The translations under genes and the position numbers were made by a program. This document shows, piece after piece, positions 1 to 62,997 of a stretch of DNA of 64,000 nt. The stretch covers positions 1,664,001-1,728,000 of the forward strand of contig CAWJGT010000003.1 of NCBI GenBank assembly GCA_963842525.1, read 5' to 3'. Within the stretch, counting starts at the first letter, position 1. Each line of letters opens with the position of its first letter. The notes under the pieces were generated by a model. That model was not told the DNA's origin, searched no databases, and was given only the letters and a program-made list of their open reading frames with translations. This DNA comes from an uncultured Holophagales bacterium. GTDB lineage: Bacteria; Acidobacteriota; Thermoanaerobaculia; Multivoradales; UBA5704.

Positions 1-522
1 TCGTATACCAAAATGTTGGGTCAGCTCCAGGATGCCGGAAACACCGTCACCCTGGCTCATTATCTGGAGCTATTGGCTGGCGCGGGGATGCTCACAGGTC
101 TTCAGAAATACGCGGCGAAGGCGGTGCGCCAGCGTGGGTCCAGCCCCAAGCTGCAGGTGTTGAACACCGCCCTGATGACCTCTCAGATGGGGCTCACGCC
201 GCAAGAGGCCCGCGCCGACCGCGAGCTCTGGGGGCGGCTTGTGGAGTCCGCCGTTGGAGCACATCTGGCCAACGCTGCCGCGGTCGGCGAGTGCGAGCTG
301 TTCTACTGGCGCGATCACAACCGGGAGGTCGATTTCGTCGTCCGATCCGGCCGTCACCTGACCGCCATCGAGGTCAAGAGCGGGTGGTCCCGGGATACGC
401 TGCCCGGAATGGCGGCTTTCGCAGAAGCTTTCAGACCGCAACGCAAGCTCCTCGTAGGCGGCGACGGCATCCCCGTCGGCGAATTTCTTGGCCGGCCGGT
501 CGCGTATTGGGTGAAGGGGTAA
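1..522 (+). CDS. AAA+ ATP-binding protein with C-terminal DUF4143 domain, 5'-truncated by the window edge
   Basis: Frame is open from base 1. Motifs SPKLQVLNTAL, GRLVESAVGAHL and FYWRDHNREVDFVV...AIEVKSG are typical of AAA_14/DUF4143 proteins. Confidence 0.85.
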   Translation, partial: SYTKMLGQLQDAGNTVTLAHYLELLAGAGMLTGLQKYAAKAVRQRGSSPKLQVLNTALMTSQMGLTPQEARADRELWGRLVESAVGAHLANAAAVGECELFYWRDHNREVDFVVRSGRHLTAIEVKSGWSRDTLPGMAAFAEAFRPQRKLLVGGDGIPVGEFLGRPVAYWVKG

Positions 523-3765: not shown

Positions 3766-4518
3766 ATGATCACCACGATCGATCACGGTCCCGTCCGCGA
3801 GCTGCGCCTGTCGCGTCCGCCGGTCAATGCCCTGGAATCCGGGCTGATGGATGCGCTCGCCGCGGCCGTGGCCCAGGCCCCGGAGGAAGGGGCGCGGGCG
3901 CTCGTCCTCTCCGGCGCTCCGGGCCGGTTCTCGGGAGGGCTCGACATCCCTCTCCTGCTCCAACTCGACCGGCCGGCGATCCGCCGCCTCTGGGAGTCCC
4001 TCTACGGGGTTCTGCGGAACCTCGCCGCCTCGCGGATCCCCATTGCCGCGGCCATCACCGGCCACAGCCCGGCCGGCGGCGCCGTCCTCGCCATCTATTG
4101 CGACTACCGGATCATGGCCGGCGGTGACTTCAGGATCGGCTTCAACGAGGTGCCGGTGGGCCTCCCCATGCCCGCCGCGATCCACCAATGCATCGCGCTG
4201 GTTCTGGGGCCGCGCACGGCGGAGCGCCTCTGCGTGACGGGGCAGCTCATGCCGCCCGCGGAAGCGGCGCGGATCGGCCTCGTCGACGAGGTCGTCCCGC
4301 CCGAGCGCGTGATCGAGCGGGCCGTCGAGTGGTGCCAGGGCCTCCTGAAGCTGCCGCCGCGCGCCATGGCCCTTACCCGCCAGACCGCCCGCGCCGGCCT
4401 CGTCCGCCGCATGGACGAAGGGCTCGCCGGAGAGCTGGACCTCCTCATGGACCACTGGTTCCACGACGAGGCCCAGGCCGCCCTGCGCGCCGTGGCCGAC
4501 CGGCTCAAGAAGAAGTGA
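3766..4518 (+). CDS. Enoyl-CoA hydratase/isomerase (crotonase) family
   Basis: Motifs RPPVNAL, FSGGLD, AAITGHSPAGG, CDYRIM and IGFNEVPVGL. Confidence 0.92.
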   Translation: MITTIDHGPVRELRLSRPPVNALESGLMDALAAAVAQAPEEGARALVLSGAPGRFSGGLDIPLLLQLDRPAIRRLWESLYGVLRNLAASRIPIAAAITGHSPAGGAVLAIYCDYRIMAGGDFRIGFNEVPVGLPMPAAIHQCIALVLGPRTAERLCVTGQLMPPAEAARIGLVDEVVPPERVIERAVEWCQGLLKLPPRAMALTRQTARAGLVRRMDEGLAGELDLLMDHWFHDEAQAALRAVADRLKKK

Positions 4519-4531
4519 GGAAGTGAGGGCT

Positions 4532-4786
4532 TCAGGCCCTCTTGATCAAGCGCAGCAGGAGCACCAGGATGACGGCGCCGACGAACGCCACGATGATCGA
4601 GCCGAGGAGGCCGCCGCCGGCCCCGATCCCGAGCTTGCCGAACAGCCAGCCGCCGAGGAACGCGCCGATCACGCCCACGACCATATCGCCCACCAGGCCG
4701 AAGCCACCGCCCCGCACGAGCTTTCCTGCCAGCCATCCGGCGATCAGCCCGACGATCAGCAATATGATCAAGCTTTCCAGGCTCAT
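4532..4786 (-). CDS. GlsB/YeaQ/YmgE family (transglycosylase-associated) small membrane protein
   Basis: 84 aa hydrophobic protein: IVGLIAGWLAG..GGGFGLVGDMVVGVIGAFLGG. Confidence 0.92.
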   Translation of the reverse strand: MSLESLIILLIVGLIAGWLAGKLVRGGGFGLVGDMVVGVIGAFLGGWLFGKLGIGAGGGLLGSIIVAFVGAVILVLLLRLIKRA

Positions 4787-4916
4787 AGCGCGCTCTCCTA
4801 TGGAAGTGAGGGTTCGGCGCCACTATACAGGATCTTCGCAGCGCGGCAGCGCCTTGCCGGAAAGCCGTGCTTCGCGGTAGCTTTTCTCTATTCACTCCAC
4901 GAGTGAGGAGAAGAAC

Positions 4917-7361
4917 CTGATCCGGCCCAAGGTCTTCGTCAGCTACTGCCACGAGGATGGCGCAATCCTCGAACAGGTCCGGATCCACCTCCGGCTGCTC
5001 GAACGGGACGGGCTCGTCCAGTCGTGGACGGATCAGAGCCTCCAGATTGGAGACCGCTGGCAGGAAAAGCTCGACGAGGCGCTCGAAGGCGCAACTGCCG
5101 CGGTGCTGATCGTGTCGGCGGGTTTCCTGGCCTCGGACTTCATCATGACGCAGGAGCTGCCCCGCATCCTGGCCCGGGAGGCGGCCGGCGAGCTCAAGGT
5201 CATTCCCATCTTCTGGAGCGACTGCCTGGCGGATCGCGAAATCGCCTTCGCCGAGGAGCGGACCGGCCGGCGGCGGACAAGGAAGCTGACGGCCTTCCAG
5301 GGGATCGGCTCGCCGCAGGAGCCGCTGGCGGGCCTCTCGTGGCCGGATCGGGAAAGGGAGCTGACCGGCCTTGCCCGCAGGCTTCTGGCCCTCGCAGGCT
5401 CAGGGACGACGCCCGTCCCTCCGCCGGTCCCAAGGCCGCCTACCACCGGTCCGGCCCGGGAGTACACGCTGACGGTCCGTCTGGAGCGCCGGGACGACGT
5501 CCTGGAGGTGCACTACCACCTCCCGGGGACCGACGCGATCGGCTCTGCCAGCCGGCCCTGGAAGGAGATCCAGGCCGAGGTGGCGCCCATCGCCGCGGCT
5601 CTCGACCATAGCGGTGACTTCGCCGTCCCGTCATCCTGGGGCGAGTCCCTCGCCAGGGTCCTCTTCGGGCCGGCTCCCCAGTGGCAGCCGGTGCTGCGCG
5701 TCCTCTTCGGCGCGCCCGAGCCCGCGCCGCAGCCGACGCCGCTGCGGGGGCCGGCCCGCCTGCGGGTCTGTACCGAGGACGCCCTCCTCGCCGGCCTGCC
5801 CTGGCGATTGACCTCCTGGAACGGCCGCGTCCTGGCGGAGATGGCTCCCGCCGGCTGGATCTTCGAGGTGATCCGGACCCTCGATCCCACCGGCGATTTC
5901 ACCACGACGGCCCCGTGCAACGTGCTCGTCGTGGCGCCGGCTGCCGCCGCCGAGGCCGGCAAGCTCCACGACCCCATGCATCCGAGGGCGGTCGCGGAGG
6001 TGCTCGGCGACGTCTGGCCGACCGGCCGCGATCCGGGCTACCTGCGCGTCGTGCGGACGCGGTTGGAGCTGGAGAAGGCTCTCGCCGGCATGCGTCCTCA
6101 TGTCGTCTACGTCTATGCGACCGGGGAGGTGGTGGGCGGCCGTCCGGCCCTTGTCCTGGACGGGGACCGGGAGGGCACCGTCGACCGGCTCCCCCTCGGC
6201 CGCCTGGCGGGCCTTTTCCAGGAGGCCGGCCACCGGCCTTCCGTGCTCTACCTCAACACCGCGGGCCTCGGCGCCGCCGCGCAGGCCCTGGACGGCAATG
6301 TTCCTCTTGTCCTCTGGCGCCGGCTGCCGGCCTGGACGCCCGAGTCCACCTCGGTCGCCCTCGCCTGGCTGCGCCGCTGGCTCGGCCGCGGCGAGGACCC
6401 GGTCGCGGCCCTGCACGAGGTCGCCCGCGACGATGCCGGACAGGAAGCCGCCACGCTGGCGGTTGCCGCCTCGTACCGTGCCTGGAGCACGCCGGCGTAT
6501 CAGGCCGTCGCCGTCCAGGACCGGTATGCGCGCCTCCGGCTCGACCGCCGGGAGCAGAAGGCGCTCGTCGCCCGTGACCTGCGCGAGCTCGTCCGCGGCG
6601 ACGGCTTCCGCACCCTGGCCCTCGTCGCCTATGCCGCGCCGGGCAATGCGATTCACTCCCTGGCCGCGCAGCTCGAGCACGACTTGGAGCTGGAAGTCGA
6701 GCCCTTTGCTGCGATCAAGTGGCGGCGGCTGGAATTCCCTCAGCGCCGGACGCAGCTTCGCGAGGACCTCCGGCATGAGCTGCACCTGCAGCTCGAAGCG
6801 GAAGCCAACGAGGTCACGCAGCACCTGCTGCGCCGGCATGCCCCGAAGGCGCTGCGGCCGGGCCGGCGGGCTGTCCTCTGGCTCGACTGGGGCTGTTTCG
6901 GCGAAGGCCACCAGCCGCCGCTGAGCCCGCCGCAGCTCGGCGAGTGGCTTCGCTTCTCCAGCGAATTCCTCACCGTCCACTGCCCGGCGGACCTGCGCCT
7001 CGTCTCCTTCCTGGCTGCCGAGGCCGAGCCGGCCCGGCACCAGCGCCTGAGGAAGGTCCTGGCGGACCAGGAGAGCGAGCCCTGGTGCCAGAGCCCCGCC
7101 TTCCTCTTCACCGCGCTGCCGCCGCTCGGCGACGTCGCGGAGGCCGACCTGCGCAAGTTCCTGCGCGATCCCGGCAACACGAGCTGCGATGCGGGCATCC
7201 AGACCGACGTCGCCCGGCGGATCTTCCAGCGGACCGGCGGCAATTTCGAGCAGACTGTCGCCCTTCTCGAAGAGGGGCAGAAGGGCTCGTGGTACGATCT
7301 GCTGAAACGCCTGCAACGCGAGCAGGGAGGCGCCCTGCCCGTCGACGACGAACCATTTTGA
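4917..7361 (+). CDS. TIR domain + catalytically dead CHAT-like domain + inactive-STAND-like C-terminus; probable CTG start
   Basis: The frame is open from stop 4878-4880. It reads [14 protein letters not shown]...[21 protein letters not shown]...[21 protein letters not shown] (TIR) upstream of the tracked start at 5103. GAGGAG at 4905-4910 lies 6 nt before CTG 4917. The central LAGLPW / HVVYVYATG / VLYLNTA motifs resemble CHAT without the catalytic His and Cys. LRLDRREQ opens the C-terminal region. Confidence 0.8.
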
Positions 7362-8278
7362 GCGAGCCCCTCCCCTTCGAGCTGCTGTCGCCGGACGACC
7401 ACGGCCCGGGCCGCCGGGAAGCCCTGGCCCGGCGCGAGCTTCCCGCATCGCTCGGCAGCCACGGGGTGGCCGCGCCCCTCTACCGGCCGGACCCCGGGCT
7501 GGTGGACGCCGTCAACGTCGCGCTGGCCGTGGGCGCGCCGCTCCTCCTCACCGGCGAGCCCGGAACCGGCAAGACCCAGGTCGGCCACTACCTCGCCTGG
7601 TATTTCGGCGTCGAGCTCTTCCCTCTCTACGTGCGCAGCACCACCACCGCCGAGGACCTCCTCTACCACTTCGACGCAGTCGCCTACCTCCACGCCGCCC
7701 AGGTGGGCCGTGTCGAGGCCATCGCCAAGGCGGATTTCGTCGAGAAAAGGCCGCTGTGGCAGGCCTACGAGGTGGACGGTCCCTCGGTCGTGCTCATCGA
7801 CGAGATCGACAAGGCGCCCCGGGACTTTCCGAACGACCTCTTGAACGTCCTCGATCAGCACACCTTCTACGTACCGGAAAGCAACCGCCAGGTGAGCCGC
7901 CGGAAAGGGGCACCGCCGCCGGTCGTGGTGATCACCAGCAACAGCGAGCGGCGGCTGCCCGAGCCGTTCCTGCGCCGCTGCGTCTTCCACCACATCGAGC
8001 TCACCGAGGAGCTGCTGCGCCGCGCCGTCGAGGCCCGGATCGGCGACTTCCCGGGCCTTTCCGCCACGGTGCGCGAGGCAGCGGTCCAGCGTTTCCTCGA
8101 GCTGCGCGGGCGCGAGGTCCGCAAGAAGCCGGCCACGGCCGAGCTGCTCATCTGGCTCACCGTGCTCTCCGCCCGCGGCGGCGTCACCGCGGAGCGGCTT
8201 ACCCTTTGCCGTCTGGCCGAGCTGCCGGCCGTTTCGGCCCTGATCAAAGACCGCGACGACTTGGCCCTCCTCGGCTGA
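7358..8278 (+). CDS. MoxR family AAA+ ATPase
   Basis: Walker A GEPGTGKT, Walker [10 protein letters not shown], and [17 protein letters not shown]. The TTG start overlaps the upstream TGA. Confidence 0.92.
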
Positions 8279-8319
8279 CCCCTTCGTTCTACTTTGTCAG
8301 ATTGCCTCGGTGGTACATT

Positions 8320-8524
8320 GCCAGCCCCGCAGGGGCGGCCGGAATTAGCCCGGGATTTCAATCCCGGGAACCGGGCATCCCAACCCTCAGGAGCCCCGCC
8401 AGGGGCGACAGGAATTTGGCCGCCGATCTCCTGCCGCCCCTACCGGGGCTGAATGGAGAGGGGGGGGCCTTCCCTTCCCGGGCTGAAGGCCCGGGCTAAT
8501 TCCGACCGCCCCTGCGGGGCTGGC
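8320..8524. repeat. REPIN-like long inverted repeat between moxR and the vWA gene
   Basis: Ends GCCAGCCCCGCAGGGGCGG...CCGCCCCTGCGGGGCTGGC are complementary, with nested AATTAGCCCGGG/CCCGGGCTAATT arms. Confidence 0.8.
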
Positions 8525-8595
8525 GTACGGCAGTTCAGGGAGCTGGTGGACGCTCGCGCAGCAGAGCTAGGGACGCTGACAAAGTAGAATGAGTC

Positions 8596-32086: not shown

Positions 32087-32465
32087 CGACGGACAGTTGG
32101 CCCTGGTCTGGCCGCAACCAGCGCCGGAAAAGGGGCGGTTCGCTCCGCAGGTCGGACGGTTAATGCTGCGGGTCGGACAGTGCGCTCTGAAGGTCGGACG
32201 GTTGTGGCCGCGGGACGGACAGTTTGCTCCGAAGGTCGGACAGTTGCTGGAACGGCTCGGACAGTCCATTCCGAAGGACGGACAGTTGACGTAGCAGGTC
32301 GGACAGCTCGCTCCGCGAGGCGAACCGTCCGACCCGCGGAGCCGACTGTCCCTTGTCCGGCACAGACTGTCCGTGTCGATCCTCCCGGAGCCACCATGCC
32401 GGTACGAACTGTCCGAGCCGGTCCCGTCGCTCAGGCGAGATCGGCGCCTACCGTCCGTACCGGTC
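32087..32465. repeat. 21-bp-period array, core GGTCGGAC(A/G)GT, followed by inverted copies of the core
   Basis: Cores at ~32150, 32171, 32192, 32213, 32234, 32255, 32276 and 32297. AC(T/C)GTCC(GA) units occur from ~32324 to ~32460. Confidence 0.8.
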
Positions 32466-40711: not shown

Positions 40712-43700
40712 TCAGTCGAATCCCTTTCGGCTTTCGTACCACTGCTCGGGACGGCGGAGCTTGAAGTCCCGTTGCCCGTTGCGCAGCTCGATGCCGACCG
40801 CGAAACGGCCGTAGCGGAGGAACAGGTCGCCCTGCTTGGCGTCTTTGGTGAATCGCAGGCGCGAGCGGAGGTCGAGACGGCCGCCGGTCACCTGCAGGGG
40901 ATTGATTTCGATGAGGCCGTCGCCGAAACGCAGATCTCCCCGTGCCACGATGCCTTCGATGCTCAGGACGCGGTCGAACCAGCGCAGGAAGCTCTTCTTG
41001 CGGGCGAAGAGGGTGAGGAGGAAGCCGGAGTCCTTCATCTCCAGGCGCGCCGAGCTGCGCAGCGAGAGCGGCCGGCTCCAGACCATCGAGCCGTCCGTCA
41101 GCTCCAGATGGGCCCACCACCCTGGGCTGTGCTCGCCGGGAGCGGCATCCGTCTCGCGATAGGTGACCTCGTCGAGGTCGAGCCGGGTGCCGCCGAGCTG
41201 GAACCGGCCCGCCCGCAGGTCCGGGCTGGCGAGCTTCGTTCGCAGCATGAGCCGTCCCGCCAGCTCCAGGTCCTGGAAGCGGGCCTGGATCGCGTCCGAG
41301 CTCAGCACGATCTCACCCTGGCCGGACTGCGCGGCGCCGTCGAGGTCGAGCCGCAGCCGCAGCCGGCCCGTGCCGGAGAGAATGGCGACCCCCGTACCGG
41401 GAGGAAAGTAGGCATTGTAGACAGTGATGTCCGGCACCTCGGCCGCCGGCAGCTCGATGACCGCCCGCAGGTCGGTGACCGGCGTCGCCAGGTCGAGGTC
41501 CTTGGATCTGACGTCGAGCCGGAGCCCGCTGCCCCGGATGTAGGAGGGCGGCGCCGGCACGGACGGATCGTCGACGCGCGGCGAGATCTCGAAGCGGTCG
41601 AAGGCGACGCGGAAGGCCGCTCCCGTGCGCGGGTCGACGCTGCCGGTCACGGTGCCCTCGCCGATCGCCAGGCTGTCGAGGAAAGCGGCGGCCACGCGCG
41701 CGTTTCCGACGGCGAGGCGGGTGCCGGGCAGGAGCCGGCCCTTGTCCAGTCGGAGGTCGACGTCGAGCCGGCCTTCGCCGTCGATCCGCAGCCAGGGAAA
41801 TTTCTGGAACCAGCGCTGCAGGAGGCCCAGGGATGAGACCCGGCCCTGCACGGCGGCGGAGCCCGAGACGAGGCGCAGGAGCTCGGCGCCGTGGAGCTGG
41901 CCGGGGACCAGCGGATCGAGCCGACCCTCGGCGCGCACGGAGAGCCGGCGGGCGACGGTGGCTCCTCCTGATTCGACGCGGCCGGCCGGCACCGCGAAGA
42001 GGATCCGCCGGACCTCCAGGCCTGACCGCGGATCGAAGGCCAGGCTCCCCTCGATCGAGCCGGGTCCGAGCAGCCGGTCCCCTGCTGCGGCGATCGAGCG
42101 GATTCCGGTGAGACGGGCCTCCCGGAGGGCCAGAGACCAGGGATTGCGCGTGCCGGCGGACCGCGCCGCCGCCGGCCGGGCAGGATCGATCCAGACGCTC
42201 ACGCCGTCGCCGGTGACCTGGTCCAGGACGATTTGGCGGCGCCGCAGGGCCGCGAGATCGATCCGCCCGCGGCCTTGCTCGACCGTCACCTGCCAGACGG
42301 CCTCCGCGGTCGCGGAGCTCAGGCGGAGCTGCGAGACCTGGAGATCGCCCGGGAGGGACAGGGCCGGTTGCGGCGCTCCCCGCAGCTCGCGGGCCTGGAC
42401 CAGGAGACGGTCGAGGCGCAGCTCGGCGGTCGTGGTGTCGATCCGCGCCGTGGCGCTCTGGAGCAGGGGCGGCCGTCCACGCCCGCCGCCGATCGCCACG
42501 TCCCGGGCCTCGGCCGTCAGCCGCAACTGCGGCCTGCCTCCGGCCGCCTCGACAGCGCCGAGGACGAGGAGGGGCCGGGAGGAGATCGCCGGCACGGGCG
42601 TATGGAGCGCGAGCCGCGAGCCCGGCAGGAGCCGGCCCCGGTCCAGGGTCAGATCGGCATCCAGGTCGCCGCCCCCGCCCCGGTCCTGCCGGCCTTGCGC
42701 CTGGAGAGAGCCGGAGAGGAAGGCGAGGCCCGCCATGCCCGGGTGCTCGCGGGGGAGATAGGGACCGAGCCGCGCCGCGGCGTCGACGTCGAGCGCGCTG
42801 GCGATCGGTCCGCGCGGGCCTTCCAGATGGCCGGCGGACGTCCGCAGCGTCGTGGGGTCGAGGGTGAGCATCCCCTGCTCGTCCAGGTTGAAGCCGCCCT
42901 CGACCGCGACGTCCCCCGCGAGGCGGTATCCGTTGACGGCCACCTCGCGGACCGCGGTCAGATGGGCTCCAGCGATGCGGACGGCCCAGGGCCGGCGCGG
43001 CGCCTGGCCAGCCTCGGGAACGACGCGCCGCTTCCGCTCGACCCGTCCGGAGACGCCCTCGCCGCGCAGGCCTTCGACCACGGCCTGCCGGCGGAGCAGG
43101 GCGGGCAGGTCGATCCGCCCGGAGGCACGATCGGCAGCCACTTCCCAGGAGACGGTCCGGCTCGCGGAGGTCAGGCGGAGGTTCTCGGCGCGGAAGTCTG
43201 CAAAGAGGGTCGCGGGCCCCTCACCCCCCTGGCCCCCCTCTCCCACCCGCACTCCCAACCCACCGGGAGAGGGGGGAAAAGGCGCTGCGCCGGAGCTTCC
43301 TGGGTGGAGACTCCCCTCTCCCGCAGGTTGGGAGTGCGGGTGGGAGAGGGGCCGGGGGTGAGGGGCCAAAGCGCGGGCCGTGGCGAGCAGCCGGCTGAGG
43401 CGCAGCTCGGACGTCGCAGCCTTCAGATGAAGGGAGTCGCTGCGGAGGAACGGCGGGCGGTCCTGCCGGCGGCCCATCGCGAGGCCCGCGGTCTCGGCCT
43501 CCAGGAGGAGCTGATCCTCGCGAGGGACCCTGAGCATCACCCGAAGCGGCCGGGGCGACCGGATGTCGATGCGGCTCCCTGCGGCCAGCCGCCCCTGGTC
43601 CACCCGCAGGTCCACGGCGACCTGGCCCGGGCCTTTCGGGGGACCTGCGGCGCGCGACAGGATGGGCACCTCCAGGATGAGGCCCCGGACCCGCAGCGTG

Positions 43701-50751: not shown

Positions 50752-50806
50752 TCCGATCCGCCCACTGACAGGGCGCGGCGCCTCCGAGGGCGAGCCGAGC
50801 GCCGCC

Positions 50807-51110
50807 GATTACAGAAATTTTACGTGCCCGCAACGCCTGCGGCACCAGCCTCCGTTACGATCGGAGCGCTCGCTCCTCGGGCTCGAAAAGGAGGACTCCG
50901 TGTCCATCCTGTCACGTCCTGTTGCCGCGGTCGCTCTCATCCTCTTGGCGTCGGTCGCTCTCGGGGCCGCTGCCCGCGACGCCTCGCCGGAGTGGCCGCA
51001 ATGGCGCGGTCCCAACCGGGATGCTGTCGCCAAGGAGACGGGGCTGCTCACGCAGTGGCCGGAGGCCGGGCCGCCGCTGGCCTGGAAGGCGTCCGGCCTC
51101 GGCAGCGGCT
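50807..51110 (+). repeat. Left copy of a ~300-bp diverged direct repeat (upstream region + 5' end of the PQQ-propeller gene)
   Basis: Colinear with 62998-63306 from GATTACAGAAA to GGC(A/G)GCGGCT. Confidence 0.88.
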
Positions 51111-62952: not shown

Positions 62953-62997
62953 GAGGGTCTCTCGACGCGGCGCACCCGGGTCGCCGTGGGAAGGGCG

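Follow-up and report, generated by a model that had tools for sequence, protein, structure and literature searches.

A probable iSTAND-type MoxR-vWA ternary conflict locus with a fossil diversity-generating retroelement in an uncultured Holophagales bacterium

To which kind of system does the receptor-like operon found in the genome of an uncultured Holophagales bacterium belong, and is its lectin-fold tip still rewritten by a diversity-generating retroelement (DGR)? The operon lies near the start of a stretch of 64,000 nucleotides (nt) of contig CAWJGT010000003.1 (G000:C3:1664001-1728000), the whole of which is called the window below; the host genome measures 9.95 Mb, has a GC content of about 70% and is 96.4% complete. 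A first-pass annotation, made from the sequence, had described three co-oriented genes and proposed that a hypervariable, DGR-diversified lectin tip feeds a TIR output, in the manner of an adaptive immune receptor. The three genes were found at the coordinates given, together with every feature described, and the locus comprises a fourth, conserved gene that had been missed, as had the repeat-bearing spacer of 317 nt between the second gene and the third. In all, a TIR effector (gene A), a MoxR ATPase (gene B) and two membrane lectin-fold sensors (genes C and D) are encoded, A, B and C on the plus strand and D on the minus strand, convergent with C (Table 1).

The locus belongs to the published iSTAND (inactive STAND)-type MoxR-vWA ternary systems (Kaur 2020; Doré 2024), here with a fossil DGR. 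The favoured reading, to which a probability of about 0.7 is given, is that of a four-gene ternary conflict system, for defence or suicide, in which an ancestral DGR, now destroyed, rewrote the tips of both sensors. The window taken by itself is an ordinary member of a published class with its adaptive feature switched off. What is new here is (i) the recognition, at the level of the fold, of a cryptic domain like that of von Willebrand factor A (vWA), of a dead CHAT domain and of a divergent iSTAND domain, (ii) a predicted contact between the vWA-like and iSTAND-like parts, (iii) gene D and (iv) the fossil DGR together with the recurrent loss of the DGR cassette; the supplements of the two cited papers may already list this family of A proteins.

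Domain composition of the gene products and their relation to ternary systems

Gene A has 69 homologues of similar length (41-87% identity, the window's own record excluded), and 48 sequences of the family were aligned. The AlphaFold model of the A protein has a mean predicted local distance difference test score (pLDDT) of 87.3; models were compared with a library of 48,161 chains by structure comparison (VIA), and Foldseek was run on the whole A model. The N-terminal domain is a TIR domain. Indeed, TIR_2 is the sole Pfam match in A (residues 6-103, 5.7e-13) and was found in 48/48 members, the ThsB TIR-like model of PADLOC matches at 3.2e-19, and residues 1-160 match 7xoz_B with a Z score of 14.8 (root-mean-square deviation (rmsd) 2.6, 139 residues aligned) and AbTir 7uxu_A with a Z score of 13.5. 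The motif FIMTQELP, in which a retained glutamate had been recognized from the sequence, occupies residues 75-82; its Glu80 is a Glu in 47/48 members and is aligned with the Glu that AbTIR 8g83 has in its 'YEL' motif, taken here to be the catalytic residue of AbTir and of plant TIRs. The TIR fold and the conserved Glu are shared with the TIR NADases AbTir, ThsB, RUN1 and RPP1.

The second domain of A (residues 181-527) has the double caspase fold of the CHAT/separase type, with Csx29 7y9x_B (Z 20.4, rmsd 3.4, 283 aligned), SAVED-CHAT 8tl0_D (Z 20.2) and separases (Z about 18) as matches. The first-pass annotation had called it CHAT-like but devoid of the His/Cys dyad, and both fold and alignment agree: position 448, which follows the fourth caspase strand and corresponds to the catalytic Cys, holds Cys in 0/48 members (T in 25, V in 12, A in 7, L in 3 and M in 1), and the caspase His position 402 holds His in 12/48 members and Thr in the window, these two positions having been set by strand order in the A model and not by residue-level superposition. 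Within residues 181-527 no column has Cys in at least 50% of the 48 members. The two-lobed caspase-type fold (Z 18-20) is thus common to A and to the CHAT proteases (Csx29/TPR-CHAT of type III-E CRISPR, SAVED-CHAT and separase), whereas the A family has no catalytic Cys (0/48), no conserved dyad His and no PF12770 match. The dead CHAT domain is presumably a scaffold.

The C-terminal region of A, in which LDRREQ forms residues 542-547, had been assigned to the iSTAND type, and several results support this assignment. Residues 528-801 match the AAA+ motor module of the origin recognition complex (ORC; 5uj7_C, Z 11.1, rmsd 5.4, 234 aligned), so that a STAND-like fold is present. Foldseek with the whole model returned CED-4 4m9s_A (4.6e-6) and the NB-ARC core of RPP1 (7dfv_A, 1e-5), and Cdc6 and RFC were also among the matches at E values of 1e-5 to 5e-6. 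The Walker A motif GxxxxGK[ST] was found in 0/48 members, the equivalent loop being YAAPGN. In the ESM Atlas, residues 530-814 adjoin clusters bearing PF19995 (often with EAD) at scores of 0.94, 0.93 and 0.92; of the 10 best named matches, 9 have a family or clan in common, which is a lead and not a proof. An hhalign comparison of the A-family C-terminus with six Pfam-iSTAND proteins gave an E value of 0.0044 over 194 colinear columns; the landmarks common to both are a [LC]DRxxQ start, a 'P-loop' strand and LPxL...V/I near the end. A search of the PDB with profiles of families A and C returned TIR and FGE matches alone, and no CHAT, STAND or vWA match by sequence. The A protein is therefore a divergent iSTAND protein, which escapes the PF19995 model and agrees with iSTAND proteins in fold, motif loss and context. 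The order of a TIR domain followed by an NTPase-like domain is also that of plant TIR-NLRs (RPP1 7dfv_B over residues 1-805: Z 14.2, rmsd 12.5), from which A differs in that its NTPase-like domain cannot bind a nucleotide by a P-loop, activation presumably being left to MoxR.

Judged by its motifs, the MoxR AAA+ ATPase encoded by gene B looks active. Pfam AAA_5 matches it at 1.7e-14, bpMoxR matches weakly, and a Walker A motif (GEPGTGKT) and a Walker B motif (LIDEIDK) are present. The overlap of A with this gene, already reported from the sequence, is one of 4 nt in the junction ATTTTGA, where TTG 7358 runs into the TGA of A (7359-7361). The B protein is 41-44% identical over its full length to the products of MoxR genes located beside Pfam-iSTAND genes (L032-L034). 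Two NCBIfam models gave sub-threshold results, namely 'MadB family AAA-type ATPase' for B (69.9 bits for a cut-off of 475) and VWA_dom_MadC for C (residues 12-94 only, 2.2e-7, far below cut-off); a literature search for the names MadB and MadC gave nothing relevant.

Gene C has at least 100 homologues, of which 46 sequences were aligned, and its model has a mean pLDDT of 81.2. It had been described as a vWA-like, transmembrane and FGE-sulfatase protein, and each of these three parts was recovered. First, hydrophobicity analysis gives three hydrophobic segments (TM1, TM2 and TM3 in Table 1). Second, residues 222-417 find as best matches outside the FGE (formylglycine-generating enzyme) domain the metal ion-dependent adhesion site (MIDAS) domains of Rea1 (6qta_A, Z 9.0, 147 aligned) and MDN1 (8ql1_A, Z 8.9), then the vWA domain of NorD (9qh8_G, Z 8.4) in NorQ-NorD, a MoxR-vWA complex, and further vWA domains; since Z scores of 8.3-9.0 are in the 'middling' range of the structure-comparison tool, the fold is called vWA-like and is not proven. 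The MIDAS is degenerate: D285, T349, D350 and G351 are invariant, the consensus reads D-E-A-A-x, and both Ser positions are lost family-wide. The ESM Atlas was uninformative for residues 205-640, with scores of 0.85 and 0.80 only and without a named vWA family. Third, Pfam FGE-sulfatase matches residues 725-876 at 4.4e-53, and the best match of the FGE domain in the library of 48,161 chains is TvpA of Treponema denticola (2y3c_A, Z 31.9, rmsd 1.5, 214 aligned, 37% identity), while Mtd 1yu0_A and TaqVP 5vf4_A give Z scores of 14.5 and 13.9. These three DGR variable proteins have in common with C an FGE-type C-type-lectin (CLec) fold and a variable repeat (VR) at its C-terminal end; TvpA is, however, a lipoprotein with a live DGR, whereas in the window the domain forms the predicted outer tip of a membrane protein with a vWA-like module, and no template repeat (TR) or reverse transcriptase (RT) is left. 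If the N-terminus of C is cytoplasmic, the vWA module would be cytoplasmic as well and the lectin tip would lie outside.

Some homologues of C depart from this plan. One (P0114) carries OmpA and NMT1-type binding domains in place of the FGE tip, and a group of proteins of about 1240 amino acids (aa) in the range P0156-P0171, including a Haliangium protein, has no Pfam domain and no FGE tip. The outer module of the vWA-like scaffold is thus exchangeable. Most of the homologues that bear an FGE domain are about 200 aa longer than the C protein of the window, with an extra segment between TM3 and FGE.

The association of the three genes is conserved. When genome and metagenome contigs were scanned with the A profile, 47 loci were recovered, of which 40 are unique. 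In 36 unique loci the sequence extends at least 400 nt past A; gene B lies directly 3' of A in 32 of them, but not in L026, L041, L053 and L068. In 25 loci the sequence continues for 700 nt or more after B: C comes directly after B in 19 of these and lies upstream, in the permuted order C, D, A, B, in two (L020 and L029), which makes 21/25, and was not found in four (L023, L046, L061 and L063). The linkage of moxR with both partners, on which the operon reading of the first-pass annotation depended, is thus strong in the family (32/36 and 21/25). In each of the 13 other loci tabulated, C has a convergent D as its neighbour. The taxa named in the labels of the records are Thermoanaerobaculia, Holophagales, Acidobacteriota, Accumulibacter, Competibacteraceae, Methylococcaceae and Myxococcales. 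In the same phylum, PF19995 gave 6 matches in 3/301 genomes, and none in the host genome; four of the six proteins are of the TIR-iSTAND or DUF4062-like-iSTAND kind, and a MoxR gene lies directly downstream in three loci.

A direct contact between A and C is predicted. The complex of C 196-632 with A 530-814 was modelled with an ipSAE of 0.83 (three runs, 0.82-0.84), and the best of three controls scored 0.01; the ipSAE mark is reached by 58/80 solved complexes and 2/110 mismatched pairs of the calibration, counts that hold only roughly here because the A-C complex was modelled from our own alignments. At least 87% of the contacts agree between runs, and the pLDDT of the partners is at least 87. 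The predicted interface is formed on the side of C by residues 210-215 (GPPR), 286-287 (beside the invariant D285) and 476-480, and on the side of A by residues 601-606, 624-625 and 643-645, which are nearly invariant on both sides. The model supports, and does not show, a binding of the cytoplasmic part of C to the iSTAND-like domain of A.

The sections of Kaur, Burroughs, Iyer & Aravind, eLife 2020 (PMC7159879) used here describe iSTAND ternary systems of three proteins. The MoxR protein lacks long extensions. The vWA component begins with a 4-helical domain, has transmembrane segments and ends in an FGS/FGE domain, which with about 22% of examples is the commonest effector. The third protein has an inactive STAND domain, with TIR or caspase-like domains at its N-terminus. 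The same sections also link the FGS domains of ternary systems to DGRs and to TvpA, the DGR link being described for VMAP systems. The MoxR protein, the membrane component with four helices, membrane segments and FGE domain, whose middle part is vWA-like in the present locus, and the N-terminal TIR on an inactive STAND are common to these systems and to the present locus. As far as those sections go, the differences are that PF19995, derived from that work, misses A; that A combines a TIR with a dead CHAT domain; that the vWA-like domain of C has lost the MIDAS serines; and that a second, separate lectin gene (D) is present. From Doré et al., PNAS 2024 (PMC10907252), the part consulted describes, for DGR clade 5A, a MoxR gene that precedes a long target in which no domains are predicted, a short second target made of CLec only, a helix-turn-helix (HTH) gene and nearby genes for TIR or caspase-like effectors; as a proposal, it gives the role of sensor to the CLec target and that of effector to the N-terminal domain of the third protein. 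MoxR plus long target, short CLec-only target, HTH gene and adjacent TIR or caspase-like genes are likewise shared with our locus; in contrast to what is described there, the N-terminal extension of the long target folds here in a vWA-like manner and is a predicted iSTAND binder, and the DGR is dead. A vWA-like extension in targets of the clade 5A type would tie those loci to the ternary systems.

The retroelement between the two lectin-fold genes

Pfam FGE-sulfatase matches gene D at 5.9e-51. The mechanical open reading frame (ORF) extends over 11798-13486 (562 aa); homology to relatives begins only at about residue 235, so that the likely start is ATG 12769, giving a protein of 323 aa. In four relatives (L020, L024, L027 and L049), the spacer between C and D is 2376-2624 nt long and contains an HTH gene, an Avd gene, a TR and a gene for an RT of 330-350 aa. 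In the first three of these, the TR (125-133 nt) matches the 3' ends of both C and D at 85-90% identity, and 107/109 TR/VR mismatches are at TR adenines. A single DGR consequently diversifies two sensors in those relatives.

In the window, the tips of C and D carry the footprint of past, not current, adenine-directed mutagenesis. In the block of 132 nt before the stop codons, C and D differ at 16 sites, of which 15 are at columns with A in the TR of a relative (hypergeometric P 2e-9) and 13 at columns where all three TRs carry A. The remaining difference lies off the adenine columns, in the 3' constant part; there being only one such difference, the loss of the DGR looks recent. Upstream of the block, the identity between C and D is only about 40-65% per 45-nt bin.

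The cassette that would have made these changes survives as remnants. The C-D spacer of the window is 553 nt long and holds a stub of the HTH gene and two fragments of the RT gene, with a palindromic repeat resembling a miniature inverted-repeat transposable element (MITE) that covers spacer positions 206-366 and matches dozens of places in the genome in both orientations. RT fragment 1 is 90% identical over 21 aa to residues 103-123 of the L024 RT (E 8e-10), RT fragment 2 is 70% identical over 20 aa to residues 318-337 of the L020 RT (E 2.6e-5), and about 195 RT codons, including the YxDD region, are gone between the two. No match to Avd was found at the window locus. No TR was found at the ends of C or D in a direct-repeat search of the whole window, and blastn of both VRs against the 9.95-Mb genome returned no TR-like copy, the best non-self matches being those of C and D to each other (85.5%) and to coding paralogues on contig C24. 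The RVT_1 profile has 18 matches in the genome and none in the window; most of them are multi-copy genes of 450-530 aa with identical scores, group II intron-like by our reading. On this sequence evidence the DGR at the window locus is dead, and no present diversification is supported. The proposal that the lectin tip is hypervariable and DGR-diversified, as in an adaptive receptor, hence holds for the ancestor and for some relatives, but not here, where the RT is in fragments and Avd and TR are gone.

The multi-copy RT genes themselves (three at 152.1 bits, four at 146 and three at 121.7) suggest active group II introns or similar elements; the nearest lies at C3:1641386-1642051, 22 kb before the window. 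On C24 (G000:C24:128643-133518), four FGE paralogues stand in tandem about 1.4 kb apart, and their proteins share 52-60% identity with the FGE domain of C. In the first of them, the DNA at the 3' end agrees at 78-82% with the former VRs of C and D. Possibly this gene, too, was once diversified by a DGR; no RT near the paralogues was found when the genome was searched with RVT_1.

It is highly improbable that the tips are still diversified in trans, by a DGR elsewhere in the genome or in unassembled or mobile DNA. The sections of PMC7159879 used here state that the TR of DGR-associated VMAP systems can be elsewhere in the genome, and a second DGR is indeed encoded about 700 kb upstream on the same contig of this 96.4% complete genome (C3:958074-961942). 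However, the TR of the second DGR gives no match to the VRs of the window, its RT is split between two frames before YVDD, no TR-like copy was found in the genome by blastn, as the RT fragments show, destruction of the resident cassette took place at the locus itself, and one of the 16 differences between C and D falls outside the adenine columns. The second DGR consists of an FGE target, an HTH gene, Avd, a TR (960646-960790) and an RT; its VR (959151-959295) is 89% identical to the TR over 145 nt, with 15/16 mismatches at TR adenines, and the frame split of the RT is located near 961600. Either both DGRs of the genome are inactivated, or the split is an assembly error.

Among the 14 loci that have both sensors, a full cassette is present in four (L020, L024, L027 and L049), a partial RT of 284 aa in one (L031), RT fragments only in two (L051 and the window) and no RT match at E<=1e-6 in seven (L017, L018, L021, L029, L042, L044 and L048). 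Of the loci without RT, several keep the pattern of adenine columns (e.g. L044) and others have decayed (e.g. L018 and L048), according to alignment by eye. The loss of the cassette with retention of the sensors appears to have happened repeatedly in the family, since 7/14 loci have no RT and 2/14 have fragments only while all sensors are intact. The live, partial, vestigial and absent cassettes at one and the same position form a natural series on what diversification contributes to such a system, and on its stopping.

State of the locus and proposed mode of action

Several points weigh against the reading of the locus as an iSTAND-type conflict system with intact parts. PF19995 (iSTAND) and PF12770 (CHAT) match 0/48 members of the A family at E<=1, and C has no Pfam vWA match in addition to its middling Z scores; as these models miss, membership rests on folds, on the language-model lead and on context. 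The extent of the STAND-like match (residues 528-801) was resolved in one row of the structure comparison only, and the hhalign alignment of the A C-terminus with iSTAND proteins has a probability of only 7.9%. The topology of C and D was derived from hydrophobicity only. As the genome is 96.4% complete, a TR could lie in unassembled sequence. Finally, two points touch expression: judged by its sequence, A has no canonical start codon at the conserved position (ACG for ATG) and may be poorly translated or not translated, and the MITE-like repeat between B and C might uncouple their expression.

The start of A, given as 4917 by the first-pass annotation, illustrates the difficulty. The frame is open from 4881 to the TGA at 7359-7361, so the stop-free translation stands, yet the codon at 4917 is CTG, a non-canonical start. 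The homologue P0005, 81% identical to A, begins MNEEKNLVQPKVFVSY, and its ATG (MNEEKNLVQPKVF...) pairs with ACG 4899-4901 of the window. The first canonical in-frame start is GTG 5103, which would cost the TIR domain 62 residues. CTG 4917 aligns with the Met of most A homologues and is preceded, 6 nt upstream, by GAGGAG (4905-4910). This hexamer was considered as a Shine-Dalgarno sequence and dropped: the same bases encode the conserved Glu-Glu of the homologue's N-terminus, so that they do not count independently in favour of a ribosome site. For P0004, at 87% identity the nearest homologue, the annotated N-terminus is likewise truncated.

The ACG codon, the truncation that GTG 5103 would entail and the similar annotation of P0004, taken with the MITE-like repeats in both spacers and the disappearance of RT, Avd and TR, could indicate that the whole locus is an eroding relic on its way to pseudogenization, with A startless, B and C uncoupled by the MITE and nothing working. 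This is considered unlikely. The reading frames of A, B, C and D are intact over 814, 306, 882 and 323 codons. At columns conserved to at least 85%, A deviates at 18/232 (family median 14) and C at 5/241 (family median 8); being as conserved as typical members of their families, the coding sequences have not decayed. Furthermore, CTG 4917, with GAGGAG 6 nt upstream, stands where most homologues have Met, and the 7/14 both-sensor loci without detectable RT keep all genes. Under the favoured reading of a ternary system that has lost its DGR, A may still be translated.

The repeat of the B-C spacer has 52 blastn matches across the genome and is absent in relatives in which C abuts B (in L019, 11341 is the last position of B and 11354 the first of C). 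Its ends, and those of the palindrome in the C-D spacer, match the Rfam Acido-Lenti-1 RNA (RF01687) at 8323-8368(-), 8477-8521(+) and 11552-11595(-). Of 150 candidates scored across the genome, 122 match RF01687 and 98 of these exceed the gathering score; many of the matches form inverted pairs spaced by about 155 nt. In this genome, a mobile repeat seems to carry the Acido-Lenti-1 'sRNA' motif as its terminal hairpin.

If the predicted topology and contact are right, a ternary conflict system of the following kind could operate. C would be an inner-membrane protein with its lectin tip and its cytoplasmic vWA-like module on opposite sides of the membrane, and D a second, short membrane lectin-fold protein of uncertain orientation. 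A ligand would bind to the lectin tip, as proposed for related systems (Kaur 2020; Doré 2024), and the signal would pass through TM3 to the vWA/helical module of C, which would hold A by its iSTAND domain. MoxR (B) would then spend ATP to remodel or release the A-C complex, after which the TIR domains could assemble and consume NAD+ or make a signal, and the cell would stop. In the ancestor, a single HTH-Avd-TR-RT DGR located between C and D would have rewritten both tips. With the cassette deleted to stubs and invaded by the MITE, the tips have become fixed alleles, and the receptor is germline-encoded and not diversifying.

A device of envelope or kin-recognition signalling, or of social cell death, in which the tips read surfaces of self or of neighbours, is another, quite unlikely possibility, which the present data do not separate from anti-phage defence. 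In the sections of PMC7159879 used here, iSTAND systems are associated with a multicellular habit (77/103 organisms, P 3.9e-24), the prediction for C places its FGE tip outside the cytoplasm, and in PADLOC only TIR models match A, while B and C have no system-level model and weak AAA matches only. TIR, caspase-fold and STAND modules are, on the other side, typical of immune systems, and the flanking genes are unrelated housekeeping genes, as in defence islands or isolated inserts. Upstream are encoded an AlkZ-like glycosylase, an alkaline phosphatase, an enoyl-CoA hydratase and a small transglycosylase-associated membrane protein; ABC-3 and ZnuA genes lie downstream, and both flanks are unrelated to the operon.

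MoxR-vWA ternary systems are, according to the consulted parts of PMC7159879 and PMC10907252, widespread predicted immune or suicide systems whose working is itself predicted. The family described here is a compact version with four genes, in which three partners can be folded with good confidence and a conserved, high-scoring vWA-iSTAND interface is predicted. If true, docking of iSTAND on the vWA MIDAS would be the first concrete, testable wiring of a ternary system, from lectin tip through the membrane and a vWA/iSTAND clamp to a MoxR-driven release of TIR. A bolder reading adds to the dead-MIDAS docking of iSTAND a natural change of an adaptive-like receptor into an innate-like one, two useful specificities having been fixed after a search by the DGR; this is held only tentatively.

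Features of the locus and other observations in the window

Table 1. Features of the four-gene locus, with positions in the window and residues of the proteins.
Feature	Residues	Positions	Strand	Basis or remark
ACG at the place of the orthologous ATG of A		4899..4901	+	alignment to homologue P0005
Gene A, 814 aa from CTG 4917		4917..7361	+	TIR, inactive CHAT, iSTAND-like
TIR domain of A, Glu80 retained	1-160	4917..5396	+	Pfam, PADLOC, structure
CHAT/caspase-fold domain of A, no catalytic dyad	181-527	5457..6497	+	structure, alignment
iSTAND-like domain of A, AAA+/STAND fold	528-805	6498..7331	+	P-loop replaced by YAAPGN
Gene B, MoxR-type AAA+ ATPase, 306 aa		7358..8278	+	TTG start, 4-nt overlap with stop of A
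B-C spacer, 317 nt, with palindromic MITE-like repeat of about 200 nt		8279..8595	.	blastn, Rfam
Gene C, 882 aa		8596..11244	+	four-helix, TM1, TM2, vWA-like and helical module, TM3, FGE/CLec
N-terminal four-helix domain of C	6-86			model
TM1 and TM2 of C	106-123 and 173-194			flank a disordered Pro-rich loop
vWA-like fold of C	222-417	9259..9846	+	structure; degenerate MIDAS
α/β domain of C	about 229-400			model
Helical region of C	to about 630			model
TM3 of C, third membrane helix	633-653			model
FGE-sulfatase/C-type-lectin domain of C	659-878	10570..11229	+	Pfam, structure
Former VR of C		11113..11244	+	aligns to TRs and VRs of L020, L024, L027
GC-rich hairpin and T run directly 3' of C		11267..11291	+	terminator-like
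Promoter-like site before HTH stub		11306..11334	+	TTGACA-17-GACAAT, 10/12 matches; relic cassette promoter?
HTH gene stub, first 18 codons		11343..11396	+	MQLTLEEAAARLGRTPRQ against L024 HTH 1-18: 67% identity, E 4e-4
MITE-like palindromic repeat in former cassette		11450..11610	.	blastn, Rfam 11552-11595(-)
RT fragment 1, 21-22 codons	about 94-123 of RT	11598..11663	+	sequence comparison
RT fragment 2, different frame	last 20 or so of RT	11663..11722	+	sequence comparison
GC-rich hairpin and T run directly 3' of D		11758..11774	-	terminator-like
Former VR of D		11798..11929	-	aligns to TRs and VRs of L020, L024, L027
Gene D, 323 aa from ATG 12769		11798..12769	-	short hydrophobic N-terminus, FGE/CLec domain

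The promoter-like site listed in Table 1 is the sole one found in 4400-13600. A soil-metagenome sequencing run contains 21% of the sampled words and gave only short contig pieces, three of them identical to the window, from which nothing on VR variation or expression could be read.

A few repeats outside the locus were also noted in the window. Two sequences 12.2 kb apart (50804-51110 and 62995-63306) share 52 nt at 81% and 204 nt at 89% identity (families D12 and D2); each is located at the 5' end of a long plus-strand ORF, and they resemble duplicated gene starts or promoters. A degenerate tandem array of 21-nt units (GGACxGTT...GGTC) is present at 32133-32342, with at least five copies of 61-75% identity (family D1). 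Finally, a REP-like palindrome of 40 nt, CCCCTCTCCC...GGGAGAGGGG, occurs in two copies, 95% identical, at 14860-14899 and 43235-43274 (family D17).

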